A DNA stretch of 64,000 nucleotides from Vulcanimicrobiota bacterium (lineage in GTDB: Bacteria; Vulcanimicrobiota; Vulcanimicrobiia; Vulcanimicrobiales; Vulcanimicrobiaceae), in NCBI GenBank assembly GCA_963714015.1, contig OY970223.1, forward strand, positions 2,176,001-2,240,000, written 5' to 3'. The notes below the pieces were generated by a model. The model saw nothing but the letters and a program-made list of their open reading frames with translations, made no database searches and was not told the DNA's origin. Made by a program: the position numbers and the translations under genes. Positions 16,554 to 42,265 of the stretch are shown piece by piece (position 1 is the first letter of the stretch; every line of letters starts with the position of its first letter).

Positions 16554-19500
16554 ATGGGCTTGTTCGGTTGCGTTCGCGCGATTCTCTCACTCTGCATCTG
16601 CTGCGCGCTCTTGGCTTGGCAATGCGCGCCCGCCCTAGCCGGCACCACCGGAGGGGTAAGCGGCGTCGTCACCGACGCTGCCACCGGACGTCCGTTGGCG
16701 GATGCCAAAGTAAGCGTCACGAGTCCTTCGCAGACCGCCACGGTTCAAACGGACTCGGGCGGCCACTTTGCATTTCTATCGCTGGAGCCCGACACGTACA
16801 CGCTGACCGCCCTGCAGACGAACTACGATTCGTCGACGATCACCGGCATTGCGGTGTTCGCCGATCAGACCCAGACAGTCACCGTAGCGCTGCAGCCCTC
16901 GCTCAAAACCATCGCGCGCGTTACTTCCCGCTCGTCGATCAGTCCCGTCAAGCCGGGCACCACCGGAGACGTCTATTCCGTGAATCCGGCGCTCGCCCAA
17001 GCATCGGCAACGCTGGGCGGCGGCGGCAACCTTACAACGGCGTATTCCGCGATCGCGGCGATGCCCGGCGCGTACGTTCCGCCCAATCAGGTAGGGGTCG
17101 ACCAATCCGTCTACATTCGCGGCGGATACTACGATCAGATCGGTTTCGAGTTCGACGGCGTTCCGGTGAACCGTTCGTTCGACAATCTGCCCTCGCACGC
17201 GGTCGCGACACTCGGACAGCAGGAACTTCAGATCTACACGGGCGGAGGTCCCGCGGCCGCGGATGCGACGGGGCTTGCCGGATTCGTCAACCAAGTGATC
17301 AAAACCGGAACATATCCCGGCTCGGCAACGATCGAGGCACGCGTCGGCGGCCCGTCGTTCTATCATGAGTTTAGCGGCGAGCTCTCCGGGGCCACGCCCG
17401 ATCACCGGTTTTCGTACTACGTCGCGCTCTCCGGCACCAATCAGTTCTTCAATTATCTCTCGAATAACAACGGTACGGACATGCTGGACACGTTTCCTTA
17501 CGGCGACGGTCCGAGCAACTTGACGACCTTCTTGCCGTTCTATCCGGCCGTCTACCCGAATTGCAATCCGTCGGATCCGAACCTCTACGAGAATCCGGTG
17601 GCGCCGGGCAGTCCGGCGAATACGGGATCCGGCCCGACGCTAACCTCGGATCCGGGGTGCTACTCCGCAATTACGGATGCGTACGCTTTGCCGTCGATGG
17701 TCGACGATCGGGAAACGGTTGCGAACCTGCACTTTGCCGTTCCTCACAGGCACGACTCCGGACGAGACGACATTCAACTCCTGTTCGACAACTCCACGCA
17801 GTACGAGCAGATTTACGCCGGTCCCAACGACGTCGGACAACCCTTGCTCCAGGCGCTCGAGACGTGCTGCGGCGGCGGATTGATCTATGCGCCGCACTGG
17901 CCGGACTTCTTGACGTACCCGGCCGGCACGCCGTTCTTCGCTCCCGCGAACACGCCGCCGATCGCCTACCTCTTCCCCGGATCGCCGCTCGACCGCTGCA
18001 ACAACACGGACCTGCTCTCGAACGACAACCTGGTCTCACCTCCTTCGATTGCCGGTCAGTGTGCCAATGGGGGCCTTTCGCTGCTTCCGAACGACTACCG
18101 GGACGGGAGATGGGATCAGGCCAGCATCTTTAAAGCTCAATACCAAAAGAACTTCGGCAGCAACGCCTATCTGCGGTTGTTCGGATATACGTTTTACAGC
18201 AACACGAACCGCAGCGGCGCGTCGCGGTACGGCATCGGCAGCGGTTTGGGTGGAACGAACTACGACTACGAAGTCGATGCGCACACCCGCGGAGCGGAGA
18301 TGCAGTTTGCGGATCAGCTGACGGGAACGAATCAGCTGATGGCTACCCTCAACTACACAACGGCGAGCACGCTGCGATCCTACAGTTATCAAGACGAGAA
18401 TAACTGGAACGCTCCGGTCAGTAACTTGACGAACGGATCGCAATGCTTCGCCGCGTATAACGGTTACTTGCAGAACGATCCGCAAGGGCTCAATCCGATA
18501 TCCGCCGGTAGTGCCGAACCCTGCAACGACCCCATCACGCAGGGAACCTTCGGGGATCCGACGAGCGTCGCCGATCCTTCCGCTTCAACTCCGGTGGCCG
18601 AGGCTCTGAACTGCAGCGCATCGTCCTCCGGCGCGCCTATCCCCTCGCCGGCTTGCGCAGCGGGCGCCTCGTGGCGACTGACCTACACGGGCAACAATGC
18701 GCTCATAAACGCCGTTACGCCGAAATTCACAAACTTCTCGCTGACGGACGAGTGGCGCCCGAACGAGAAGCTGGACATAAACGCAAGTATTCGGTTAGAC
18801 CGTGATGAGTTCGACTTGCGCCCAATCGCCTCGCCGGGAACGAACTTTTGGTTCGCCGCGGCGCAAAATGAGTTTTGCTATTATCCGGATACCCTCTTGC
18901 CGCTTGTCGTTCCCCAGCCGCCGCAAAACGCAAGTTCGGTCGAGCCTTACGTTGCGCTGACGTGCCCCGGCAACACTGTGCATCCCGACGGGAAGAACGG
19001 CCACGTGCTCTTTACGGACCAGTTCAATCCGACGTACGTGCAGTCGTATGCGGAACCGCGCTTTGGGCTAACGTACCAAACCGATCCCGACACCGTTCTG
19101 CGCTTTTCCGCCGGACGTTACGCTCAAGAGCCCCAAAACTATGAAGTCGAATATGACGGCACGCAAGAAAACCTCGCCGCCGGGCTCTTCGGTTTTCTCC
19201 CGTTCGGTTTTACGACGCCGCGGCACGACGCGGGCGCGCAGTTCTCGAACAACTTCGACCTTTCGTACGAACACCATATCCGCGGAACCGATCTTTCGTT
19301 CAAACTGACCCCGTTCTACCGTTATGCGACCGACCAATTATACGAAACGGTCAGCATTCCGACGCTCTTCGGGCTCTCGCCTTCGTTCAATTCCGGGACG
19401 GAGCGCGCCGACGGCGTAGAATTGGAGTTCACGGCCGGCGACTTCAACAAGAATGGATTCTCGGGCGTATTCTCTTACACGTTTACCAACGCGAAAGAGC

Positions 19501-20415
19501 AGTGGGCGAATTACGCCGGCGTGCCGATCAATCCGGTCGACCCGTACAACGAAGCGATCCAGTATTACAATCAGTCTGACGTCCGCTTGCGGCGGCTCCA
19601 ACCCCTCACCCGTGCTCTGCGGCGACATGAGCGTCGTGGGGCCCCCGGCGCCGTGTTACACCAACAGCGGAACCGACTCGCCCGATCCCACCTGCGCACC
19701 CACGTCGATTCGCAACCCCTACTACAACATGCCGGCGCAGCCGCTGCTCGACAAGAACGGCTGGTACACGCCGGGGCTCGATTTTCCGTACGTTTCGCCG
19801 AACACGTTCTCGCTGGTAATGAACTACCGCCACGGTCCTTTTGCGATAACGCCCGCTCTTGAATTGGCGGAGGGAACCTCTTACGGAACGCCGGCGGACT
19901 TCCAGGGCTTGGACCCGCGCGTCTGTGGGGCAAATCAAGGTTCGATCGGCGTCAAGAGCGGAAATCCGCTCAACGCGGATTACACCTCGTGCGGGCTGGC
20001 CGCAACGCCGACCGGTACGTTGAACATTCCGAATCCTTATACCGGAACGTTCGACACGTTCGGCCAGTTTCAGCAGCCGTGGGATTTCAATTTAGGCTTG
20101 CAGGCCAGCTACGATCTCACGCGATCGGTGACCGCGAACCTGACGGTCACGAATTTGCTGAATCAGTGTTTCGGCGGATCGGCCGAGCCGTGGACCGCGG
20201 CGCACCCGCCCAGCCGCACCGTTTGCGGATACGGCTCGAACATCTTTTACATCAGCAATTTCTATAACGGCACGAGTCCCAACGACGTCTCTGCCAACGG
20301 CGTACCGCTCAATCCCGCATTTAGTCCGGCTTTCATGCCGGCGCCGGGCGACGACTCCGCGTACAACCTCACGTTGCCCCTGGAAGTATACTTCCAATTG
20401 CGGTTCAAGCTTTAG
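16554..20415 (+). CDS. TonB-dependent receptor (frameshift near 19575)
   Basis: GGAGGA RBS, signal peptide, GTTGGVSG carboxypeptidase-like domain, plug YIRGG/FDGVPVN, C-terminal YFQLRFKL; frames join at AGTCT 19573-19577. Confidence 0.9.
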
Positions 20416-24133: not shown

Positions 24134-24565
24134 ATGACCAAAGAGCAACTGTACTCGGAATATGCCGGATATCATCAAGATATGCGGAATCGGCGTGCTC
24201 ACGCCGTGGGGATCCCGCTCATCGTCGTAGGACTCTTGGGCGTTCTGCACTTGGTGCGGATCGGTCCGGTAGATTTGGCCGCTGCGGCGGCCGTCGCGGT
24301 CCTGCTCTATTACGTCGCGATCGACGCGCGCGGCGCTCTCGTTTCAGCGGTTGCTTTCGCAGTTCTGTACTGTATCGCCGTCCGTTTGACTTGGGAAGCA
24401 AATGTTGGGGCTTTTATTCTCGGATGGGGCTTCCAACTCGTCGGTCACCGCCTCGAGGGCAATCGGCCCAAGTTCGTGGAGAACGTGGTCTATTTGCTCA
24501 TCGGCCCCCTCTACTTTTTTCAAGAACTTTTCGGTTCGTTAAGCAAGGCGAGGCGGCCAACTTGA
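24134..24565 (+). CDS. DUF962 / Mpo1-like membrane protein
   Basis: Y..YHQD..NRRAHAVGIP, GWGFQLVGHRLEGNRP, LLIGP. Confidence 0.85.
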   Translation: MTKEQLYSEYAGYHQDMRNRRAHAVGIPLIVVGLLGVLHLVRIGPVDLAAAAAVAVLLYYVAIDARGALVSAVAFAVLYCIAVRLTWEANVGAFILGWGFQLVGHRLEGNRPKFVENVVYLLIGPLYFFQELFGSLSKARRPT

Positions 24566-24594
24566 TTGCATTTACGTAAACCGCGTGGTAGGAT
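24566..24594 (+). promoter_or_regulatory. Sigma70-type promoter for the zinc-ribbon gene
   Basis: TTGCAT-N17-TAGGAT with a TG extension. Confidence 0.6.
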
Positions 24595-24700
24595 TGCCGG
24601 GTAAAATCTGGTTTCGAAGTCCCCTCAGTGTCCTCTCTCAACGGTACCTAGGCGAGTCGAATCAGGCCCAAACAAACCACGTTATAAGGAGTCTCGTTTA

Positions 24701-25015
24701 GTGTACGTTGATGAAATGTTGAACTGCGTCGATTGTGGACGCCAGTTCGCGTTCACGGCCGGAGAACAGCAGTTCTACGCCAGCAAGGGCTTTCAAAACA
24801 AGCCGAATCGTTGCCCCGATTGCCGGCAGGCGCGCAAGCAAATGCGCTCGCAGTCCGGCGGGGGCGGCGGTATGGGCGGCGGCGGACAGCGTCGTGAAAT
24901 GTACCAGGCAACATGCAGCCAATGCGGCGGCATTGCAGAGGTGCCGTTCCAGCCGCGCGGCGACAAGCCGGTGTATTGCCGCGACTGCTTCCAGTCCAAA
25001 CCCAGCTACCGCTAG
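24701..25015 (+). CDS. Zinc-ribbon protein with CxxC-x17-CxxC domain
   Basis: CVDC..FAFTAGEQQFY..KGF.N.P.RCPDC, Gly linker, CSQC..AEVPFQP...PVYCRDCF; AAGGAG RBS. Confidence 0.92.
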   Translation: MYVDEMLNCVDCGRQFAFTAGEQQFYASKGFQNKPNRCPDCRQARKQMRSQSGGGGGMGGGGQRREMYQATCSQCGGIAEVPFQPRGDKPVYCRDCFQSKPSYR

Positions 25016-25036
25016 TACTGGGAATTACGCAGAAAT

Positions 25037-25064
25037 GAGCTCGCCGCACCGGCGGGCTCTTTTT
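25037..25064 (+). terminator. Rho-independent terminator
   Basis: GAGCTCGCCG-cac-CGGCGGGCTC followed by TTTTT. Confidence 0.8.
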
Positions 25065-25065
25065 G

Positions 25066-25085
25066 CTTTTCAGAATCTTTTCAGA
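25066..25085 (+). promoter_or_regulatory. Candidate OmpR-family direct-repeat site
   Basis: Perfect CTTTTCAGA x2 with 11-bp period, 45 nt upstream of ATG 25131. Confidence 0.45.
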
Positions 25086-25130
25086 GCTTCTGCCTAGCCT
25101 GAGGACTCCACATTCTCTGAGGAGACCTCG

Positions 25131-26286
25131 ATGCGAGCAACCATGGTGCCCATTGCAGCCGCAGCGGTTATTGCACTGGCGGCCTGCTCTTCACCCGGCG
25201 GTCCAAGTGCGACCGCTCCGATAGTTCCGCAGTCCATCGCCGGACGAGGCGTCCAGGCGCCTCAAACCAGCGACTCGTCGGTTCTGCAAAATTTGCACGA
25301 GCAGACTGTCGGTTCGGTCGCCGATCCGGTCACCGGCGACGTAAATCCGTACGGACTGGCGGTTGCGCCCATAACCAACGGAAAGATCGACGCCGGCGAT
25401 CTCGTCGTCTGCGATTTCAACGACAAGCAAAACGTTCAAGGCACCGGTACGGCGATCGTGTCGATCGGTCCGGCCATCGGTTCGAAGCCTCGCCATATCG
25501 TCGATGCGAAAGTCTTGGAAGGTTGCGACGCAATTGCGCTTGCTCCCGACGATACGATCTGGCCCGCGGACTTTGTCGCGAACAACGCGCCTATCGTCAC
25601 GCCCGGTGGAAAGATTCTCACGACGGAGAGCAATGGACCATGGCACGGCCCTTGGGGCGAAGCGTTCGTTCCGCCGCTGAGCGAGAAGAACGTCCCGGCG
25701 TTTTACGTGAGCAATGCGGGCGACGGAAGCCTGGTTCGCATTGGGCTGGGGAACCAAGTAACGTTCACCGTCATCGCAACCGGCTTTCCCGTCAACGGCG
25801 GACAGCCCGGAAGCATTCTCGGGCCGTCGGGATTGAATTACGTCGCCTCGAGCGACCGCCTGTACGTGGTCGACGGAACGGATAACGCGCTGTATGCGAT
25901 CGACAACGTCTCGAGCGTCCATAAGAACGGCATCACGGTCGACGGACTGCAATTCAGCGGCCCGGATGCAAAAGATGCACACGTTATTTATGCGGGCAAG
26001 CCGCTGAACGGCCCGATTCAGCTCGGCGCTGCTGCCCGGTGGGCATATCGCTCTGGGCAACACGCTGGACCCGGCCGGCAAGAACCTCATCGTCGAGGTC
26101 ACGCCGGGCGGAAAGGTGGCCGACGTGCGAAATATCGATACAGGCGCATCGGGCGCAATCTTCGGAATGGCCGCAACGGGCGATTCGCCGGCCACGACCA
26201 AGCTGTACTTTAACGACGACAACGACAACACGCTTCGCGTGCTGACGCCGTGCCTGGTAACCAGCCCTCGCCAGGTTGCCTGCTGA
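25131..26286 (+). CDS. Secreted beta-propeller-like lipoprotein (frameshift near 26019)
   Basis: GAGGAG RBS, lipobox LAAC, NPYGL/GPSGL blades; continues NGPISSALLPGG...LYFNDDNDN after removing one base next to AGCT 26020-26023. Confidence 0.7.
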
Positions 26287-29055: not shown

Positions 29056-29831
29056 AGATCGTTACCCTGAACTGCAACGGAATTCGATCCGCAGCGCGTA
29101 AGGGGTTCTACAGTTGGATGGAGGCGCAGGATGCAGACTTCATCTGTCTGCAGGAGACGAAGGCTCAGGAGCATCAGCTCCCGCTCGAAGCGGCGGCCGT
29201 TTCGCACTATACCGGCGTGTTTTTGGATGCCGAGAAGAAGGGCTACAGCGGCGTCGCCATCTATGCCAAACGCGAACCGCAAAACGTCGTTCGCGGCTTG
29301 GGCTGGCCGGAATACGACCGCGAGGCGCGATGGCTGCAGTTCGACTACGACGAATTCAGCATCGTTTCGCTTTACGTGCCGTCCGGCTCGATGGGCCCCG
29401 CGCGGCAGGCTGTAAAAGAAGCCTTTCTCGAAAAATTCTATCCGGAACTCGCGCGTTTGCGCGCGAGCGGGCGCACCTTCATCATCTGCGGCGACTTCAA
29501 TATTGCGCATAAGGAGATCGACGTTTACAACCCTATCCGGTGCAGCAAAATCTCCGGATTCTTTCCTCACGAGCGCGCCTGGATGGATCGCGTCATAACC
29601 GAACTGGGCTGGGTCGACGGCTTTCGCTCGGCCAACCCAGAGCCCAAACAGTTCAGTTGGTGGTCGAATTTTCAGAACGCGTTCGCGCGCAACAACGGCT
29701 GGCGCATCGACTATCACCTCCTCACGCCGGACCTGGGGCCGTCAGTGAAATCGGCCTCTATCTATCGCGAGGCGCGCTTCTCCGATCATGCTCCGGTACT
29801 TCTGGAGTACGATCTGGACCTTGGAGCATGA
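29052..29831 (+). CDS. xth: Exodeoxyribonuclease III / AP endonuclease
   Basis: NCNGIRS, CLQETK, KKGYSGV, GDFNIAH, GWRIDY, SDHAP. Confidence 0.95.
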
Positions 29832-32096
29832 ACCTGGTCTGCATCGGCGGCGGCCCGGCCGGATTGTACTTCGGGCTGCTGATGAAGAAGGCCGATTCGG
29901 GCCATCGCGTTCGCGTGATAGAACGTAACCGCCCATACGACACGTTCGGCTGGGGCGTCGTGTTTTCGGACGCGACGCTCGAGAATCTGCAGCGAGCCGA
30001 CGAAGCCACCCACGACGAGATTCGCGCGGGGTTCGCGCACTGGGACGACATCGAGATCCATTTCAAAGGGCACACGCTTCGCTCCGGCGGACACGGGTTC
30101 TCCGGCATCGGCCGCAAGCATCTGCTGAACATCCTGCAACGGCGCGCCGAAGAGCTCGGCGTGGAGCTCGTGTTCGAAAGAGAGGTCGCGGACCTCGGGC
30201 CGTACCGCGATGCGGATCTGATCGTCGCCTCCGACGGCATCAATAGCCGCGTGCGCGCGACGAACGCCGATCGCTTCCAACCCGACTTGGACACGCGCAA
30301 CTGCCGCTTCGTCTGGCTGGGAACGACGCTGCCGCTCGACGCGTTCACCTTCGTCTTCGAACGCACCGAGCACGGCTGGTTCACCGTCCACGCATATCGT
30401 TTCGACGAGAACACGAGCACATGGATCGTCGAATGCCGCGAGGAGACTTGGGTCGCCCACGGCCTAGATCGCGCCGATACCCAAACCACGCTGCGCTTCT
30501 GCGAGGACCTGTTTGCGCCGTATCTGCACGGCCACGCGCTGATGTCGAACAGCCCGCACCTGCGCGGCCGCGACTGGCTCAACTTCACGCGCGTCAGCAA
30601 CGCGCACTGGACCGACGGCAATATCGTGCTGCTGGGGGACGCGGCGCATTCGGCGCATTTCTCAGTGGGATCCGGAACCAAACTCGCTATGGAGGACGCG
30701 ATTGCGCTGCAGCGCGCCCTTTGCGAAGAACTTTCCATGACGGCTGCGCTCGAACGCTACGAAAGCGAACGGCGCATCGAAGTGCTGCGGCTGCAGAACG
30801 CGGCGCGCAACAGCACCGAATGGTTCGAAAACGTCGCCCGCTACGCGCAGTCTGCCGCCCGAACAGTTCGCGTACAGCTTGCTCACGCGCAGTCAGCGCA
30901 TCAGCCACGAAAATCTGCGGCTGCGCGACAAAAACTACGTCGAGTCGGTGGAGCGCTGGTTCTCACCCGCGGGCGAACCCGTGCCGCCGATGTTCACGCC
31001 GATCCGGCTGCGCGAACTCGAGCTGCGCAACCGGGTCGTCGTCTCGCCGATGGACATGTACAGCGCGATTGAAGGAACGCCGAACGACTTTCATTTGGTG
31101 CACCTGGGTGCGCGCGCGCTTGGCGGCGCGGGCATGGTCTATACGGAGATGACGTGCGTGAGTCCCGAAGGGCGGATTACACCCGGCTGCACCGGGATGT
31201 ACAAGACCGAGCACCTCGCGGCGTGGAAACGCATCGTCGATTTCGTGCATGAATGGAGCGGCGCTAAGATCTGCCTGCAGCTGGGACACAGCGGCCCCAA
31301 AGGTTCGACGAAACTGATGTGGGAGGGCATGGACGAGCCGCTCGCCGAGGGCAATTGGCCCGTCAGCGGACCCTCGCCGATACGGTACGGTCCGCAGAAT
31401 CAACTGCCGCGCGAACTCTCCTGCGCCGAGATGAATCACATTCGCAGCGAATTCGTGCGCGCGTCGGAAATGGGAGTTCAAGCCGGGTTCGACATGCTCG
31501 AGTTGCACTGCGCACATGGGTACTTGCTGTCGAGCTTCATCACGCCGCTGCAAAACCGGCGCAGCGACGAGTACGGCGGATCGCTCGAGAATCGCCTGCG
31601 CTATCCGCTCGAGGTCTTCGCGGCGATGCGCGCGGTGTGGCCGGAGCATTTGCCGATGTCCGTGCGCATCTCAGCTACGGACTGGGTTGAGGGCGGCATC
31701 ACGGCCGAGGACTCCGTCGAGATTGCGCGGGCCTTTAAAGCCGCCGGCGTGGATTTGGTCGACGTCTCGACCGGCCAAACCTCGCGCGAAGCGAATCCAG
31801 TGTACGGCCGCATGTTTCAAACGCCGTATGCGGATCGAATTCGCAACGAGGTCGGCGTCAAGACGATGGCGGTCGGCAACATTTTCGAACCGGACCACGT
31901 CAACGGAATCATCGCAGCGGGGCGCGCGGATCTCTGCGCGATCGGGCGGCCGCACCTTGCCGATCCGAACTGGACGCTGCACGCCGCCGCCCAGCTCGGG
32001 TACACCGGCCTGGAATGGCCCGTGCAATATTTGCCGGGCAAATCGCAGCTCGAGCGCAATTTGGCGCGTGCGGCGGAGATTTCCGGCCGCATATGA
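29828..32096 (+). CDS. abmA: Bifunctional anthraniloyl/salicylyl-CoA monooxygenase-reductase (frameshift near 30851)
   Basis: [34 protein letters not shown] flavin monooxygenase fused to an old-yellow-enzyme domain ([23 protein letters not shown]); repaired junction reads [16 protein letters not shown]. Confidence 0.9.
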
Positions 32097-32816: not shown

Positions 32817-33839
32817 CTACAGAATTGCTTTGACCAGGCCGCGGGGTGCGTCGCTCTGCACGCCGCGTGCGCGGCCCAAATAGAGCGCGAGCATCTGTCC
32901 GGCCACCAGCCACGAGAGCGGATCGAATGGTCCCGAATACAACGGTCCGAGCACCGGGAGATCTTCGGTGCGTTCGCCCACGACGTAGCCGAGCGCGCCG
33001 GCACCCAGCGCTTCGGTTAGGGCGCGTCGCACGAGGCGATCCGAGCGTTCGTCGATGATGCCCAGTATGGCGCATGAAGCGTCGAGCATCGCAGCACTGC
33101 CGTGACGGAATTCTCCGGCGGCAAAACCCTCGGCATGAAGGTAGCTGGCTTCTTTGATCTTCAGTGCGAACTCGCCGGCGATTGGCAAGCCGTAGCCGCT
33201 GCCGATTACGACGACGCTCGAACGCGTCGATATGCGCGCGGCCGCGTCGCGAACCGCGCCCGTGTCGGGGCTATTGAGCCACGTTTCGACGGCATCCGCG
33301 ATCCGCACGAGCGCTTCGGCACCGCCGGCGCCGTCCGTGCTCAGGAGCGCCGCCACCCATAGCAGTATCGCCGCCATGGCCGTGACCGTTTTGCTGGCGG
33401 GCACTGCGATCTCCTCACCGCAATCGGCGTGGATGCACAGTGTTGCGCGCCGGCCGAGCGGCGAATCGGGAGTGTTTGTGATCGCGATCAAACAGCTGGG
33501 CTGCAGCACGTCGAGCGCGTCGAGAACGTCCGTGGATTTACCGCTCTGCGAGCAGACGATTGCGGTCGTGCGCGCATAGACGACATGATCGATTGCCGCC
33601 TCGGTGGCCGCAATTGCCTGCGCCCGGACTCCTCGGCATCGCAGCGCAATCGCGCCCAGCTGCGCGACGAAGAGGGAACTGCCGCTGCCGATCAAGATCA
33701 CTTCCCGGCCCGCAATCGCGTCCGCGACCGCGCGCGCCTTATTTGTGGCGGCGAGCGCGCGCCAAATCGCCGGCTGTTCCCGAATCTCGCTCTCGAAGTT
33801 TGCCCCCAGCACGTTTCCGTTATCCGTTTGCGAAGTCAT
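32817..33839 (-). CDS. Double-SIS-domain protein, GlmS-isomerase-like (glucosamine-6-phosphate deaminase NagB-II-like)
   Basis: EIREQP, GSGSS, SQSGKS, VPASKT, ALKIKE...EF.HG; no glutaminase domain. Confidence 0.82.
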   Translation of the reverse strand: MTSQTDNGNVLGANFESEIREQPAIWRALAATNKARAVADAIAGREVILIGSGSSLFVAQLGAIALRCRGVRAQAIAATEAAIDHVVYARTTAIVCSQSGKSTDVLDALDVLQPSCLIAITNTPDSPLGRRATLCIHADCGEEIAVPASKTVTAMAAILLWVAALLSTDGAGGAEALVRIADAVETWLNSPDTGAVRDAAARISTRSSVVVIGSGYGLPIAGEFALKIKEASYLHAEGFAAGEFRHGSAAMLDASCAILGIIDERSDRLVRRALTEALGAGALGYVVGERTEDLPVLGPLYSGPFDPLSWLVAGQMLALYLGRARGVQSDAPRGLVKAIL

Positions 33840-35931
33840 GGCCCGAGCGTACCGCGCAGCACGGTGATCGACTGCGGCGCAAGCGTATAGGCTGAATCGG
33901 CATGCACGATCGACGTAACCGGCGGATTATCAGGACTAGGAGCGGACTGCGATCCGCGAGACCGCCAAACGTACTGATCGCTTCCGAACGTGACGCGCGT
34001 CACCGATCCGGTGAACGCGCGCGCGCCGGCGAATACCAATTTGACGGGCAGGCGGCACGCGCATTTGTTGACCAGCATGACGGACCAAGTATTCCCGGGA
34101 CGCTTTACGGGATACGCCGTCAGCAGCCGGCTGCTCGTGCGCGCGCGATAAAGGCGCTGCACGCGATTTGCCGGATCCAGCCACTGCCTTGCGATCATCT
34201 CGCCGCCGTAGAATTGGGCGCCGCGGGCGCGAATGCGCGCGTGGGCGTCCGCCACGAACATGGTGAGGTTACCCCAGTCGGCCGGACACTGCTCGTTCTG
34301 CGAGAGCGGGACCGGCTCGTACTGATAGTAGACGATCCCCTTCACGCCTTCTTCCAAGAAGCCCGCCATATAGTCCGCGAGCCATAAGGCGCCTTCAATC
34401 TGCATCGGCGTCTGCGTGAAGTTCACGGCCGAGAAGTTCGCTTCGGTGACGTACATCGGGACGTTCGGCGGAACACCGTCGCGGCGCCACGCGGAGACGA
34501 CGGTGTGGATGATGCCGCTCTCGCTCTCCAAGTCTTTGAGCAGGGCCGCGCCGTGCTCGCAGCCGTCGAACGGATAATGTTCGAACGACATGAAGTTCAG
34601 TTGGGCCAGAGCGCCGTGCGCGTGCAGATAATTGAGAAAACGGTTGAGCCACGAGACGTTTGCCGTGTGCATCCGGCCACCATTGCAAATCGGAGTTCAC
34701 ACCGGAGAAGACAGGGCCGCCGAGCGCCAATCCGGGAAACTTGCGGTGAATTGCGCGCGCCCATTGAACGTAGAGCGCGGCGTCATCTTCGGGCTCGATG
34801 TACTGTCCGTCGGGCTCCTCACCGAGCTCGATCCGTTCGATCGGATAGCCGCGCGCGTGCAGATATTGCACCTCGGCGACCGCGTTCTCCGGCGTGCTGT
34901 AGATCATGGCGACCGGATAGGTGCCGCCGAGTCCGCGCGTCAGTCCGCTGCGCGCAATGAGATCGAGCCCGGGCTGTTCCTGGTCGCGCACCCGGGTTGC
35001 CGCCGTATGCCATGGATCGACGGACGAAACGTACATTGCCGTTTGACGCAACCCGCAAGCGTAGCGCTTGGGCAAATATCCGCCGCAACGGCGCATGATG
35101 GACGTAATCGCTGAAGACGGTGCGGCGCAGGACGCCGACGGACAGCTCCTCGATCGCATAGCCGACGCAGTTGCGCTTGTCGGCGGCACCGTGGGAGTCG
35201 CAGGTATTCGACGACCTCGACATCAGCACGCGCACGAAGCGCGCGTTTATGGGTTTTCTCGCAAGACGCAGCGTAACCGTACTGCCTTGGCCGTTCGATG
35301 CGGCGCCTTGCGGGAAATCTTTCCAGGATCCGTGTGCGGGGTCACCGATCGCATCGCTTCCGGTCCAGTATGAAACGCGATACGCCGTCGCATACGGCGA
35401 GCCCCACGCGATGCGAACTGCGTTCACCGGCTTTGCCGCATTCAAATCCGCCACGACCCATTGGGGATGAAGCGCTTCGGATTCTCCGGTGAATGCGGAC
35501 GTCAAATACGGATTACTTTTCCAATAGGTCTTCGGATCGCCGTCGTCGATGCGCGAGTAGTCGGCGTTGTTCCCCTGATCGGTCGTGGAACCGCGATGCG
35601 GAAGACGGTAACCGAAGGAATCGGCGATCGGCGCGCCGGGGACTGCGCTGCTGGTCCAGTATCCGGCGTTGCCGGCGCTGAATGCGCCGGCGGGATTCCA
35701 GTGCCAATCTTGCGACGAAAGCTCGGTGAAGAGCCGGTAGCTGAGCCAGCCGAATCCCGGCTGCAGCATTTGGCGCACGTTCTCCGGCGAGTACAGGGCG
35801 GGAATCGTTCCGGCCGGCTCCTTGTCCACGGTGGACCCGACAGCGTCGCGCGCACGGAACGTGTTGACTGCATGCGAGGTGTCTACGTCGACGGTGACAA
35901 GTGACGCGAGCAGCGCGACGAGTTGAATCAA
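33836..35931 (-). CDS. Secreted clan GH-A-like glycoside hydrolase with inserted F5/8 (CBM32/discoidin) domain (frameshifts near 35088 and 34660)
   Basis: IDDGDPKTYW..., QWVVADL, ARFVRV discoidin motifs; ELGEEPD, GGP, SFEHYP and YVTE TIM-barrel motifs; C-terminal beta-sandwich LAPQSITVL. Confidence 0.72.
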
Positions 35932-37392
35932 CGGCGCACTGCGGCGCGGCGCGCGCGTGTCTGCGCAGGCCGCCGATGGCCCGACAGCGGCGAAGGCGCG
36001 TAGCCCGGACCGGATTCCGCAATCGGCGTCGAGATCGTGATGTCCGATTGACCGCTCGTGCCGGCGATCGGCGGTGCCTGAGGAACGCTGCCTGCCGATT
36101 TTTCGAGCGAGGCGACGGCTTCATACAGCGGGTAGTCGACGCCGATCGCCTGCACGGAGATCGTGTCGCCTTGGCCGGAGACGGGGAAGCTCGGCGTGTT
36201 TGCGGCGTTGTTGTCGGCGGCCGTGCAGATGCTCGGACTCGGCGTCAGATTTTGAACGCCGCCCCCGATGTTCGTGTTGGGTCCGTCCGCTGCGGGCAGA
36301 TTGTACGTTCCCGAGGACCTCACTTCGATCGTGTAATAGACCGGAGCGAATGCCGTGCCTTTGGGTCCTTGACAGTTGTTTGCCGTGCTTCCGGGCGTTC
36401 CCACAGGGCCCCAGTCGACGATCTGCACGAATTCCTCGGTGACGCCGCCGGGAACCGTTACTGCAAGTGTTGCGCCCCCGTCGCCGTTTGCATCCGGAAC
36501 GACGCGCGGAGCGCTAATCGCCGGCAGCACGATGCCCGCATTGAGATTGGCGGTCTGAGCGATATTGCTGACACTTTGCGAACCGCCGTTTCCGACGGTC
36601 GCAACGGCGACATTGAGCTTGTACGTTCCGGATCCGGCCGCGAGGCCTTCGAATACCGTGATTCCTTCGGCCAAGCCCAAGAAGTACGGTTGTCCGAAAG
36701 TATCGTCGCCTTGAACGGTAAGGCCGTCACGATCGCCCATGTGATCGCCGTTGGGGTCGAACGCCGGCGGACCGCCCCATGGGACGAAGAGCGGGTGCGT
36801 GCTTCCGTCGTCGTAGAGCGGCTGAGGATACGGCGCGTATCCGTCCGCCTGTCCAGTGACGGGATACGAGTTGAACGGCGCAAGGCCCATCGCAAAGACG
36901 CCGCCGCTCTGTCCGAACGTCGTAGCATTCGGCGGAATGTTGTTGGTACACGCGGTGAAGTTAGCGGGCACACTCCCCGTCCCGTCGCAATATGGAGTCC
37001 CCAATTGCACGAGTTGCGACGTGCCGGTGATCGCCGGAGTCGCTGCCGTCGTCTCGGACAAACTCGGTCCGGCGTTGGGAATCGTCGTATACGGATCTTG
37101 ATCGGCACCATTTGCAGGCGCTGCTGCTGCGCTTCCCCAGAGTGAAGGGACCGGTGATTTTCGGCGTATCCGCGCCGATTGCGGTTTGTCCGTTCGGCTG
37201 GCGCAGCGTCGAGACCACGTTCAAGCCGGTCGCGCTTCCGTAGATGTTCGCGGTTCCGACGGCAAACTGCAGTTTCGCGTAGCTCTGACTCGTCGGATTA
37301 ACGGAGCTGATCGGCACGCCTGCAGATCCGGCGCCGCAGCCGGCGATCGAGCCGCCGCAAAGAAGCGCGGCGATAAGGCGGAGTGTTTTCAT
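35928..37392 (-). CDS. Lipoprotein encoded directly after the TBDR (frameshift near 37136)
   Basis: MKTLRL...IAGC lipobox; two ORFs join at a G-run; Gly/Thr/Pro-rich beta-type sequence. Confidence 0.75.
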
Positions 37393-37401
37393 CGTTGTCT
37401 C

Positions 37402-40400
37402 CTAGAGGGCAATCTGCAGATAGAACCGGTACGTGCGTCCGGGTACGTAGAATTCTTGGAACGGCAGCCAGTACTGATCGTAGTAGCTCTCGTTACGTCC
37501 ACCGGCCAGGTAAATCGGATTAGGAACGCCGCCTTGCACGATCGGGTAGTCGACGGCGTATTGGCCGGTCTGTGCGCCTCCGACGCCCGTGGCGACGGGT
37601 TGCCAATCCGTGTTCGGCTGCGGCTGTCCGCGATAGTTATCGAACAGGTTGCTGACGTAGACGCCCCACGTCAAGCGATCGTGCGTATATTCCAGATCGA
37701 GATCCGAATACAGGCGCGGCGCGGTGAACGCTTGTCCGGCAAGCGCGGGCTCGTTGTTGCCGCGGCATGCGAAATCTCGCGGATTCAAGTAACTTCCCGG
37801 ATCGGCCGGATCGACGTAGCACGTCGCGTCGATGGGTAAATTCGGACCAGCGGCACCAGCGTATGGCGTCGCGACGCCGAGGTTTCCGGTCGGCATGTGA
37901 TAGAGCACGCCGTTGATGTAGCCGATTGCATCGCGGCCGACGCCGAACGGCTCGCCGCCGTCGAAGTCCAAAATCGGATTCACCCGAATCCCGCCCTTCG
38001 TCGCGTAAGTAATACCTGCGCGCGCCGAGAACGGCGGCAGGAAGCTCTGATGGAAAAGCACGTTTGACTCGTACAAGAACTGCTGCGCGATCGGCAGGCT
38101 GTCGGACCCGCTGACCGGCGGTGTGTCCGTGAGTTCATTGATGTAGTTTGCCGTCAAAAATCCGCTCCAGCCGTACTCGCGCACCGGCGTCGTGAGCATG
38201 AACTCGACACCGAGCGCTTTTTGCAATCCGGTTTCACGCTCTTGAAATGAGCCGGCCGTCTGCTGTCCCGTGACCGGGTTCGGCGGTCCGTTGTTGAGTT
38301 CGACCGTTTGGAACGTATCGAAACCGCGGCGCGCGTAGCCGGTCAACTTCATGCCCCAGGCGTTCTTGAATTGATGCTGATAGCTGAGGTCCCAATTGTT
38401 GTACGTCGACGGACGCTGGCCGCCGTAATCCGGCGCGCTATATCCCTGGTCAAAATTCCAGTACAGCGCTTCGGCGTAATTCGGGCACTTGAAGAACCAG
38501 CCGGAATATGGATTGGCCGGCGTGCCGATGATGTCGGCGCCGCCGAAGTACACGTTGGGATTTTGCGTGTACGTACCGTTCCCGTTGGTGCCCGGTCCGT
38601 GCCAGCCGCTGCCGCAGGCCGGATTTCCGGCCGAGTCCTGGGCCGGAATCTGATAGAGGATCGGGTTAATGTTCTCGAGCGAGCTCGGCGTGCCGGCGTA
38701 CTGACCGAAGAAGTCGCTGACGGAGCGTCCGAAACTGACTCGTGCACTGTCGTTTTGGTCGAAGATGTAATCGACCGACGCGCGCGGCTCCAGATCGCGC
38801 GGCCTAAGAAACGTATTCGGCAACTGCGCGAAGCTCAGTCCCACGTCATACGGGTTGGAAAGATCCGCGCTGAACGGATTTGCACCCCACTTCAGATTCT
38901 GTCCGTCCATGCGCACACCGTAGTCGATGTTCCATTTCGCACTCGGCGTCCATTGGTCACGGATGCCGACGCCGAAATCTTGGAAGTCGGTGTTGTGATA
39001 GTTCCAGCCCGCGGTCGGCATCGCCGGCAATTGCCCGTTCCATTTGCCGTTCGCCAGCATCCACGAATAGATGTAGCAGCCTTCTTGGGTCGGTGTTTGG
39101 GTGAAGGCGTTGTCGAGCGCCGGTCCGATGCAGGGATTGCTCGCGCTGACCGGTTGTCCCGGATTCACGCGGCAGATACCAATCCCAAATGCGCGGGCCG
39201 TTGGGAGCGTACTGCGACTCGAGAATAGGGGACCCGCTGTATCCGGTGATTTGCTGGTCGTACGACTGCGCGTTGTTGAGGCCCGTCCAGGTGTTGCCGT
39301 CGTTCTGCTGATTCCAATACGGGAAGTTGTTTTCGAACTTGCCGACGAGCGTGAGAATATGTTTCTCGCCCGCCTGCACGACCAGTTGGGACTGCACGCC
39401 GGTCGAACGGCTCCCCTCGGGATTGTAGCCGTTGACGAAATATCCGTCGCCGCCGTCGGTCAAATCGGAATAGTTTCCGGTGATGTTGGACTCGTTCAGG
39501 CCGCCCCAGTTGTAGAAGAAGGTATTCCAGGTCGCGTTTCGGCTCAGTTGCCGGGTGTAACCGATCTTCAAGACGTCGTCGGGTCCGAGATTGTTCTGCT
39601 CCGGCTGAGTGACGGGAACGGACTGGAACGGATTCGACGGATGCGGAACACCTTGCACGTAGGTCAGAATCGAATCGTACCACGCGAGTTGATCCGCGGG
39701 ACTGCACTGCTGGACGCCGGGCGGAAGCGGAAAGTAGCAGCCCCACATGCTGTTGCCGTTGTAGTCCGTTTGCGCGAAGCCGTAGTTCGCCGGATTCCAG
39801 GGATAATACGCAGCCTGCGCGAGGCCGCCGTAGTTCGCCCACGAGCGATGATCGATAAAGTCCGCGAGCACTTGAAGTTGCTGATCGTTGTTGCGGCCGA
39901 AGCGGTAGACGAAGTTGTTCAGAACGTCGTCATCGTACGTCAACGACGTTCCGAAATATGCGCCCACGTCAGCGGCGCTGCGTCCGTAGGGCGCATACTG
40001 CGGCACCGACCGATCGGCGCGAACGGAGAAGAAATCCGAGAAACGCCCATTCTTTGTGGCGGTGCCGTATTGGAACGCAAACGCGTGGTCGTACCACGGC
40101 GACCCCATGTCGAAACTCATGAAACCGTCGCCGGGATACGAACCGCGCCCGGGTATCAAATTCACGACGCCCGCGCCGATGCCGCCTTGCGTCGCGTCGC
40201 CCGCGCCGCTGACGACCTGAAGCGAGCCGCGTCCCCCGCCGATGCCGTTGAGGAATCCGGCGTCGGGGTTTTCATCAAAGAATGCGCCGCGGAAGTCGAT
40301 GCCGTCGAACTGATAGCCGATGTCGACGCTCGCGGATCCGCGAATGGAGAATGCGGCATTGGTTCCCACTTGCGCCGTTTGGATGACGCCCGGTGCCGAT

Positions 40401-40912
40401 TCGACCAGGGTGTTGTAATCCGTGGATCCTTTTTCACCCAGCGCCTGATCGACGCGCGCGCCGCTGAACGTGGTCTCGTCCGTCGTTTGATGCGGCTCGA
40501 AAGCGGAGGATTGCGATCGCGCCGTGACGTGCGCCACAGTCTTCAACGACCCGGACAATCGCACCGTCGCCGCCGTATTCGTTTCATCGCCGAAGACGGC
40601 TACGCCGGTCAACGCGAACGCGTCGTAGCCGTTTTTTTCGAAGGACAGATTGTACGTGTCCGCCGGCAACTGCAAGAATGAATAGTAGCCGTGGTTGTCC
40701 GTAGTCGTTTGGAACCTGCCGGACGGAGAATTGGCGATCACCTGGACCCCCGCCAGGGGCGCGCCGCCCGACGCATCGAGAACGATTCCCCGGAGGTTTC
40801 CGGTGATTCCGCCGGCAGCGGATGCCGCAAGCGGCTGCGCTATACACGTAAAGACGATGGCGGCAAAAGCGATCCAAGACAGAAGGCGGGCAAAGCGAGA
40901 GGTCATGAACAT
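37402..40912 (-). CDS. TonB-dependent receptor (frameshift near 39170)
   Basis: AAGGAG RBS, signal peptide, carboxypeptidase-like domain, FSIRGS, FDGID, GAGVVN plug, C-terminal PGRTYRFYLQIAL. Confidence 0.9.
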
Positions 40913-40962
40913 CGGTTGCTCCTTACGGTCACGGGCGCACGGGCGCTTCGAGGGCTTTTTAT

Positions 40963-40985: not shown

Positions 40986-41028
40986 CCTTGCTTGTTTTGG
41001 CCCCTGCGGCTCTGATACGGTAGGCACA

Positions 41029-42265
41029 GTGAACCTCAATCAGCGAGGGCGCTTGAGCCTCGCCGCGGACCAGCCTGTGATGATGCGCCGCCGGAACATC
41101 AGCGCCATCATGCGGACGGTCCTGGCCAACGGGCCGCTCTCGCGTTCGGAGATTGCCGAGCGAACCGGCCTTAGCCCCGGCGGCGTCACGAAACTTACGG
41201 CAACACTGCTGTCCGCAGGATTGCTCCGGGAAGTCCAAGGCCAGTTCGGCCCCGCCTCCGTGTTGGGACGTCCGCGCGTACCCGTGGAGATCGACGATCG
41301 TTTGCATGTCGTCGTGGGCTTGCACATCGGCACGCAGTGGACCACGGTCGGTATCGTCGATTTGGCCGGACGCCTCATCCATCAAGAACTCTTTGCGCGC
41401 GACGATAGAGACCCGGCGGTGGTCTTGCGGGAAGCAAAACGCTACTCGGAGACGCTGCTCGGCAAACACGCGCCCGCGAGCAACGTGATCGGGGTCGGCG
41501 TGGCGATCGGCGGCTGGATCGACACGGAACTAGGCGCCGTCGTCGAGCATGCGGCGCTGGGGTGGAAAAACGTTCCGCTGCTCGAGATGCTTCGCGGAAC
41601 ATTTGCATATCCGGTCCGGCTGGACAGTACCGTGCGGGCAATGGCGCTGGCCGAAGGCTGGTTCGGCACCGCAGTCGGCGCGCAGAACTGGGTGCAGACT
41701 CTTCGTCGCCAATGTCGTCGGAGCGGCGATCTCGGTCGAGCACTCGATTCAGCGCGGTCCGCAATCTGCCGCAGGCGACCTGACGCACCTGCCGATTCGC
41801 GGCGCGCACGGGATCATGACGTGCACGTGCGGCCACCGCAACTGCTTTCAGGTCGTCGGCAGCGATCAGGCCGTGCTTACCGCTGCGCGCGACCGCAAGA
41901 TCGTGCCGAAGGCGCATGTCCTCAAAGACGTCATCGAAGCGGCACGCGGCGGAAATTCTGCGGCGCAGAAACTGCTGCGCGACCGCGCGCGCGTCGTCGG
42001 TCAGGCGGCGGCGCTGATCTTTGAATTGATCAATCCCGACGTGACGGTTCTCGCCGGCGGCATCATCCACGCGCCCGAGTATTTGGACGATCTTCGAACC
42101 GCGGTCGCACGGCACGTTCATCGGGATATCGATCTGGAGCAGCGTATTCTGCCGAGCATTTTGGGCGAAGACGCGTATCCCATCGCTCCGGCAGCACTGG
42201 TTTTATCGGAATACTATCGCGATCCGATGGCTTTCGAACCGCTGCTTTCGTTCGCCGCGGAATAG
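41029..42265 (+). CDS. ROK family transcriptional repressor (frameshift near 41698)
   Basis: N-terminal HTH (GPLSRSEIAERTGLS...GRP), GVGVAIGG, ALAEGWFG, CTCGHRNC zinc motif; frames join at AGACT 41696-41700. Confidence 0.9.

Follow-up and report, generated by a model that had tools for sequence, protein, structure and literature searches.

Introduction

Amino sugars from the remains of fungal and bacterial cell walls are a major store of organic nitrogen in soil, and to our knowledge only a small number of enzyme families can hydrolyse glycosides of sugars with a free amine. The closest described systems include the following. In one report (PMC6566704), the exo-beta-D-glucosaminidase GlmA of Thermococcus kodakarensis (glycoside hydrolase family GH35) carries Asp178-Glu179 in place of Asn-Glu; Asp178 hydrogen-bonds the C2-NH2 group of glucosamine (GlcN) and the D178N variant is inactive. 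The same text describes CsxA, the GH2 exo-beta-D-glucosaminidase of Amycolatopsis orientalis, in which the carboxylate of Glu394 binds the C2 amine in a charged interaction. In the GH79 beta-glucuronidase AcGH79 of Acidobacterium capsulatum (Protein Data Bank (PDB) entry 3VNY), Glu173 and Glu287 are catalytic and Asn172 interacts with them, as stated in PMC3832595. A 64,000-nucleotide stretch of the genome of a Vulcanimicrobiota bacterium (assembly GCA_963714015.1, contig OY970223.1, positions 2,176,001 to 2,240,000), here called the window, was found to carry a glycosidase gene that resembles GH79 in its predicted fold, and in which Glu takes the place of the Asn before the predicted acid/base residue. 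The preliminary description of this DNA, made from its letters, had taken as its premise that an acidic residue in GlmA recognises the GlcN amine, for which the report cited above gives the evidence. The product of the gene is, with somewhat better than even confidence, a retaining enzyme of beta-glucosaminidase or chitosanase type, in which the additional Glu would bind the 2-amino group of the sugar.

Results and Discussion

A GH79-like glycosidase with a Glu-Glu motif

The glycosidase gene runs on the minus strand from a TTG start at 35931 to a stop codon at 33838-33836. Its features are:

33836..35931, minus strand: GH79-like clan GH-A glycosidase gene with an inserted CBM32-like domain; open reading frames (ORFs) 34819..35931, 34395..35189 and 33836..34672
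34815..34820, minus strand: Glu-Glu codons, the first in the place of the clan's Asn, the second the predicted general acid/base (sequence and profile alignment to AcGH79)
34442..34444, minus strand: predicted nucleophile Glu of YVTE (sequence; aligned with E287 of AcGH79)
35215..35589, minus strand: F5/8 type C (discoidin, CBM32-like) domain (Pfam PF00754, expect value (E) 4.1e-12; PF22633, E 2.8e-9)

In the reverse complement, GAG GAG at 34820-34815 reads ELGEEPDGQY within IELGEEPDGQYIEPEDD, and gtc acc gaa reads V-T-E, the Glu codon of YVTE lying at 34444-34442 within VPMYVTEANFSAV. Both readings had been given in the preliminary description and both hold; the Glu it took as the putative nucleophile aligns with E287 of AcGH79.

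The closest intact orthologue, P0001 (703 aa, same genus, 62-89% identical to the three pieces of the window gene), was modelled with AlphaFold2 from a 62-sequence alignment, with a mean predicted local distance difference test score (pLDDT) of 90.1 and a predicted template modelling score (pTM) of 0.91. A Foldseek search of the PDB with this model gave the A. capsulatum GH79 beta-glucuronidase as the top match (E 7.6e-17, 16-18% identity), followed by GH51 arabinofuranosidases, bacterial and human heparanase, GH44 and GH39. All the matches listed belong to GH79, GH51, GH44 or GH39, which we take to be families of clan GH-A, and the protein is modelled as the (beta/alpha)8 barrel of this clan joined to a beta-sandwich. 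The earlier proposal of a clan GH-A enzyme, which had named the fold as its check, is upheld by the model. The Glu-Glu pair follows strand 367-372, with E375 at the acid/base position, and the Glu of YVTE (E499) ends strand 495-500. These are the places, after strand 4 and at the end of strand 7, of the acid/base and nucleophile Glu of the clan, and the same catalytic roles are predicted here.

A profile of the catalytic part matched AcGH79 at E 7.1e-5, the only significant profile match among solved structures. The alignment sets LGEE(V/P)DGQY on LGNEPDLFY (N172-E173) and YVTEANF on RLTETNS (E287, by chain numbering). Because of the Foldseek ranking together with this alignment, the family is placed, by sequence and model comparison, as a distant GH79-like branch of clan GH-A, in which only the Asn of the shared G-x-E-P-D core is changed. 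Asn directly before the acid/base (N-E-P) is typical of the clan, not universal, and is Glu in the window family.

The likeness to AcGH79 (PDB 3vny, 5g0m) and the heparanases thus comprises the barrel, the beta-sandwich and the aligned G-x-E-P-D and T-E motifs. In contrast, sequence identity is only 12-18%, Asn172 corresponds to Glu, and the window family has a CBM32-like domain inserted N-terminally and amino-sugar genes as neighbours. The Pfam families Glyco_hydro_79n and 79C gave no match to P0001 even at E 10, nor to the window pieces at E 0.1. GH51, GH44 and GH39 share the barrel and beta-sandwich (Foldseek E 1e-15 to 1e-12), whereas neither the window protein nor the orthologue has a sequence-level match to these families. 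In scans of the window pieces and the orthologue no Pfam or NCBIfam family was found for the catalytic part, no solved structure was nearer than the GH79 match, and no paper on the family was found in the open-access library that was searched. One family member, P0078, carries a precomputed Pfam GH39 match. In a protein atlas the clusters of the family are unnamed or automatically named, and the nearest named ones (GH79, GH39, GH44 and ASD1, of GH51 type) are leads only. The family would therefore appear to be unclassified, a status not proven by these comparisons, as the CAZy classification lies outside them.

The N-terminal piece (35110-35931, minus strand) matches F5_F8_type_C over residues 115-239 with 46.8 bits against a cut-off of 28.2, and P0001 scores 43.4 bits. 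By this curated profile cut-off the domain is a member of CBM32 / F5_F8_type_C. It precedes the stretch that aligns with the GH79 core, in agreement with the earlier statement that the catalytic region has a CBM32-like insertion near its start. Among solved structures, the Paenibacillus glucanase/chitosanase modules 2rva and 4zz5 come nearest to the domain (E 3.1e-6). These modules presumably bind chitosan. The similarity was set aside as an indication of chitosan binding by the window domain, as the match spans framework residues 41-121 of the Paenibacillus modules. The abstract of PMC12154041 supports chitosan binding by those modules.

GlmA is a retaining enzyme of clan GH-A, as the window family is predicted to be, and in both the Asn before the acid/base is exchanged for a carboxylate, shown in GlmA to bind the C2 amine (PMC6566704). 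The residue is Asp in GlmA and Glu in the window family, and domain architecture and host phyla differ. No sequence relationship to GlmA or GH35 was detected, GH35 being absent among the sequence matches and the listed fold matches, and because of this the resemblance would be convergent and functional, not one of family membership. CsxA uses a Glu for the amine, as is predicted for the window family; unlike in the window family, that Glu is far in sequence from the acid/base, and family and architecture differ.

Size of the family and conservation of the motif

With P0001 as query, a word-indexed search returned 7214 proteins at E ≤ 1e-5 among 8000 candidates scored. An exhaustive profile search of 1.84 billion representatives (50% identity) gave 2088 matches at E ≤ 0.001 and 402 at E ≤ 1e-30, and contigs of one genome per species contained at least 609 family stretches. 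The hosts are Eremiobacterota (Baltobacteraceae), Acidobacteriota and some others, and those members that are named carry only the source annotation 'discoidin domain-containing protein'.

The preliminary description had left to an alignment of homologues whether Glu-Glu is conserved or is mostly Asn-Glu. Sequences were aligned to the family profile and counted only where they span the site; loci found by a pattern containing Glu-Glu were kept out. Glu-Glu, not Asn-Glu, was found in 61 of 62 homologues of a smaller set, in 119 of 120 word-search matches, in all 100 of the 50%-identity representatives that span the motif (150 were listed, the other 50 being fragments that lack the region), and in 116/116 new matches from a search started with the divergent member P0178. 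The strand-7 Glu is kept in 118/119, 85/86 and 116/116 sequences of the last three sets, respectively. Taken by motif, 335 of 336 homologues spanning it have Glu-Glu, with Pro as the next residue or else Val, Ala, Ile, Thr, Cys or Arg.

In P0040, the sole Glu-Glu exception, AQ replaces EE and TQ replaces TE, both sites having been lost together. This joint loss is as expected if these are catalytic residues, and P0040 is probably a paralogue without catalytic activity in which the fold and the CBM32 domain are retained. The strand-7 exception, P0249, has Lys at that position, just before the end of the sequence. The source genome itself contains a paralogue of 725 aa with the EMGEEVDGQY type of motif (G000:C1:40100-42274; L090:8101-10275, plus strand).

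Gene context

The genes around the glycosidase in the window are:

32817..33839, minus strand: two-SIS-domain protein of the GlmS-isomerase-half type, putative glucosamine-6-phosphate deaminase (Pfam SIS E 3.1e-21, two stretches)
35928..37392, minus strand: lipoprotein of no known family, between receptor and glycosidase, frameshifted (lipobox-like ...IAGC; 519-aa orthologue in the same-genus genome G001, two frames)
37402..40945, minus strand: TonB-dependent-receptor-like outer-membrane protein, frameshifted (CarboxypepD_reg E 1.4e-13; weak Plug E 0.0016)
41026..42265, plus strand: divergent ROK-family protein with N-terminal winged helix (NagC/Mlc-type architecture), frameshifted (G001 orthologue ROK E 6.8e-41, HTH_24 E 9e-7; two frames)

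The ATG of the SIS gene overlaps the glycosidase stop codon by 4 bases, and L002 and L003, two genomes of the same genus, have this neighbour too. Its 340-aa product matches the GlmS profile over positions 255-598 of 601 only; the best NCBIfam matches were GlmS (E 5.4e-43, C-terminal part), NagB-II (E 2e-23) and GlmD (E 1.2e-19). Two SIS domains without a glutaminase domain constitute a GlmD/NagB-II-type architecture, and deaminase activity is putative. The archaeal GlmA pathway presumably uses a deaminase of this same GlmS-isomerase type, GlmD.

For a wider comparison, 65 of 74 related loci from species-representative genomes were used, namely those longer than 12 kb; the retrieval pattern included the Glu-Glu motif. 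Non-overlapping ORFs were called and clustered by BLASTP, and cluster representatives were annotated. The recurring neighbours, with the number of the 65 loci that contain them, are:

26 loci: major facilitator superfamily (MFS) carrier, nearest to D-galactonate transporters
23 loci: NagB-like protein, best matches glucosamine-6-phosphate deaminases (E 7.2e-41); in 22 loci at most two genes from the glycosidase
22 loci: homologue of the DgaE-family pyridoxal phosphate-dependent ammonia-lyase (E 1.6e-50)
21 loci: TonB-type receptors
18 loci: quinoprotein dehydrogenase
16 loci: RidA
15 loci: KduD-like short-chain dehydrogenase/reductase (SDR)
12 loci: RraA-like aldolase
12 loci: cytochrome c
10 loci: SMP30 lactonase
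8 loci: CE4 deacetylase
7 loci: IclR/KdgR-like regulator
6 loci: PfkB protein resembling 2-keto-3-deoxygluconate (KDG) kinase
5 loci: SIS deaminase-like protein
5 loci: amino-acid-permease (APC) family carrier
3 loci: 2-keto-3-deoxy-6-phosphogluconate (KDPG) aldolase

At least one amino-sugar marker (NagB-like, DgaE-like, SIS or CE4) occurs in 35 of the loci and in 12 of 27 glycosidase subclusters (70% identity). This context points to amino sugars independently of the motif. Two non-orthologous types of deaminase accompany the glycosidase, the SIS type mostly in Eremiobacterota-type loci and the NagB type in Acidobacteriota-type loci; that two unrelated types do so in different lineages suggests a functional link rather than inherited synteny alone.

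Several points weigh against this interpretation. The other 30 loci carry none of these markers, and the loci are phylogenetically dependent, mostly from Terriglobia, so that the counts overstate independent support. The NagB-like, DgaE-like and GlmD-like annotations all fall under the curated NCBIfam cut-offs, as do all equivalog scores of the SIS protein of the window. The paralogue in the source genome is divergent from a glutamine-synthetase-family gene (L090:6566-7993, minus strand) and has no deaminase nearby, and no enzyme assay was found for any member of the family.

The closest solved relatives, GH79 beta-glucuronidases and heparanases, and the neighbours that also suit uronate catabolism (the KduD-like SDR, the KDG-kinase-like PfkB, the KDPG aldolase and the IclR/KdgR-like regulator) count in the same direction. 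They would fit a beta-glucuronidase, a heparanase-like enzyme or another glycosidase acting on uronic or neutral sugars, in which the extra Glu has another role, for example contact to the 2-hydroxyl through water, tuning of the acid/base pKa, or binding of a cationic aglycone or polymer outside subsite -1. Such an enzyme is considered unlikely. Only one enzyme with an acidic residue at this position has served as a tested precedent, GlmA, and there the residue recognises the amine (PMC6566704); the Asn-to-Glu change is fixed across the family. Moreover, a uronic or neutral substrate leaves unexplained the NagB-like, DgaE-like, RidA and CE4 genes of the related loci, as well as the SIS genes both there and in the window and same-genus loci, and no uronate isomerase was seen among the annotated recurring clusters.

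Two adjacent carboxylates at the end of strand 4 are also reminiscent of another mechanism. In GH20 and GH84 an Asp-Glu pair serves in substrate-assisted catalysis, and an N-acetylhexosaminidase of this kind, with the first Glu orienting the 2-acetamido group, would be compatible with CE4 and NagB-like neighbours, which suit substrates containing N-acetylglucosamine as well. This seems very improbable. The near-invariant strand-7 Glu, aligned with the GH79 nucleophile, is lost together with Glu-Glu in P0040, which fits the classical mechanism with two carboxylates. In addition, no NagA-type deacetylase was present among the annotated recurring neighbour clusters, and the single NagA, GH20 and GH18 genes of the source genome lie elsewhere.

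Proposed function

A retaining beta-glucosaminidase-like or chitosanase-type enzyme, convergent with the archaeal GlmA and its Asp-Glu pair, is on balance the favoured assignment. From the preliminary proposal of a GH-A enzyme in which Glu-Glu recognises an amine, the GH-A part stands, and amine recognition is retained as a prediction that has gained from the conservation of Glu-Glu, the GH-A fold, the GlmA precedent and the amino-sugar gene context. The substrate, the anomeric and linkage specificity, exo versus endo action, the localisation and the role of the first Glu are what we infer, as follows.

The protein would be an exported retaining hydrolase of clan GH-A, which has a beta-sandwich at its C-terminus and the CBM32-like module behind the first strands of the barrel. 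In the invariant G-E-E-P-D, the second Glu (34817-34815), located where strand 4 ends, would act as general acid/base. The nucleophile of the retaining double displacement would be the YVTE Glu (34444-34442), located where strand 7 ends. The first Glu (34820-34818) would replace the Asn that binds the 2-hydroxyl in other GH-A enzymes and be joined by a salt bridge to the protonated amine at C2 of the sugar bound in subsite -1; it is this pairing that leads to a beta-glucosaminidase or chitosanase-type enzyme.

Oligosaccharides would enter through the TonB-dependent receptor and the lipoprotein, and the glycosidase would free an amino sugar. The likeliest candidate is beta-linked glucosamine, with chitosan-like or partly deacetylated chitin or other deacetylated glycans as its source. 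Release of a free-amine sugar would account most economically for the full set of neighbours. After phosphorylation, the product of the overlapping SIS gene would convert it to fructose-6-phosphate and ammonia, the ROK regulator being encoded divergently. This route of phosphorylation and deamination would use the SIS type of deaminase in the window organism and the NagB type in Acidobacteriota. In many Acidobacteriota the sugar would be oxidised outside the cytoplasm to an amino-aldonate, imported, and deaminated to 2-keto-3-deoxygluconate.

A gene set that recurs in Acidobacteriota loci comprises quinoprotein dehydrogenase, cytochrome c, SMP30 lactonase, D-galactonate-type MFS carrier, DgaE-like lyase, RidA, PfkB, KDPG/RraA-type aldolase and IclR genes and is seen in L028, L030, L031, L035-L041, L050, L054, L066, L067, L070, L082 and others. 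It looks like a route from glucosamine via glucosaminate to 2-keto-3-deoxygluconate.

A wider proposal is put forward tentatively. The window protein may be the founding type of an unclassified GH-A family of beta-glucosaminidases, abundant in soil Acidobacteriota and Eremiobacterota, which in many Acidobacteriota feeds an undescribed periplasmic route: quinoprotein dehydrogenase, cytochrome c and lactonase would yield glucosaminate, which after MFS import would be converted to 2-keto-3-deoxygluconate by the DgaE-like lyase and RidA. What would be new is a branch of clan GH-A at family level, whose predicted switch in specificity parallels that of GlmA. If the predicted specificity is correct, a further family of glucosaminidases would be known, and Asn-Glu versus Glu-Glu/Asp-Glu would be a one-residue signature of specificity that evolved at least twice in clan GH-A. 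Conserved gene clusters in two soil phyla, both abundant and poorly cultured, would then gain a function as well.

Frameshifts in the glycosidase gene

As assembled, the glycosidase occupies three reading frames: frame 0 from 35931 to ~35089, then frame 1 as far as ~34662, then frame 2 down to the stop codon at 33838-33836. The acid/base and nucleophile codons thus sit in different frames. The preliminary description was silent on this split, and both frameshifts were overlooked there. A MAFFT alignment of the DNA with the intact same-genus orthologues in L002 and L003 disclosed exactly two one-base insertions, at ~35088 and ~34661:

35086..35090, minus strand: first frameshift, one extra base at a TT (single-column alignment gap at ~35088; frame switch between ...DYVHHA and CGGYLPKRYACG)
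34659..34663, minus strand: second frameshift, one base too many, AAA in place of the AA that the frame requires (alignment gap at ~34661; frame switch between ...WWPDAHG and NVSWLNRF...)

Intact orthologues of the window glycosidase have 697-756 aa, and in related genomes eight relatives are intact, with lengths of 697-845 aa. An intact open frame of 792 aa in G001 matches the window in tblastn as three collinear pieces in three frames. With the open frames from 59 kb of G001, tblastn located nine frame switches in eight genes of the window:

40945-39158 / 39162-37405: TonB-dependent receptor
37392-37138 / 37097-35976: lipoprotein
41026-41703 / 41693-42262: ROK gene
29828-30850 / 30852-32093: flavin (FAD/FMN) oxidoreductase
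16572-19574 / 19576-20412: 1298-aa protein
near 24561-26250: two smaller frames with switches
within 33836..35931: glycosidase, two switches

The source genome is a single 3.56-Mb contig, 89.6% complete, and in the same assembly rpoB and rpoC, both of them essential, are also broken into two frames each (G000:C1:2035484-2038733 and 2063474-2066972). Because these genes and unrelated genes of the window are split too, the two glycosidase frameshifts are probably assembly errors of the insertion/deletion (indel) type, and the organism would have an intact gene. The pattern suggests that indel errors are uncorrected throughout the assembly, and ORF-based readings of this genome should allow for frame switches. 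A decaying operon, with four adjacent frameshifted genes, was rejected as the main explanation on the same grounds.

It is nevertheless conceivable, and judged quite improbable, that this strain carries a true pseudogene, disabled by the two frameshifts, irrespective of what other family members do. For a pseudogene speak the two +1 insertions relative to the orthologues, and the frameshifts in the upstream lipoprotein, receptor and ROK gene of the same locus. Public reads weigh on neither side: the contigs of run X1 (29% of sampled words) span 33805-34461, 35216-35639 and the end of the window, and neither 34661 nor 35088, and runs X2 and X3 gave short pieces only, at 90-95% identity, from other organisms. 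Against a pseudogene stand, besides the split essential and unrelated genes, the position of both extra bases within short runs of the same base (TT, AAA) and the state of the remaining sequence: extra bases aside, the three pieces are 62-89% identical to the intact G001 protein over essentially the whole mature length.

Further observations on the locus and the genome

The receptor has a 1197-aa orthologue in G001 that matches in two frames, and a homologous cluster has OMP_b-brl_4 at E 1.2e-196. No Pfam or NCBIfam family was found for the lipoprotein. Its cluster, 'u513', adjoins the glycosidase in 6 of the 65 loci (L016-L020, L025), and in Eremiobacterota-type loci a lipoprotein of ~500 aa invariably separates the glycosidase from the TonB-type receptor. 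This protein may bind glycans at the cell surface as a partner of the receptor. In L016-L020 an APC-family carrier is located between the receptor and, where present, the SIS deaminase-like gene, and the window locus is without it. This carrier could import a cationic amino sugar.

Paralogues of the glycosidase in two same-genus genomes (L010, L011) are flanked by a similar open frame, which has no Pfam match as cut. Elsewhere in the source genome, all far from the locus, are one GH18 chitinase-type gene, one NagA gene, one GH20 gene (apparently split) and three CE4 deacetylase genes; the coordinates listed for the GH18, NagA, GH20 and CE4 genes are G000:C1:1339950-1340975, 3521213-3522181, 1868644-1869667 and 2021375-2021746.

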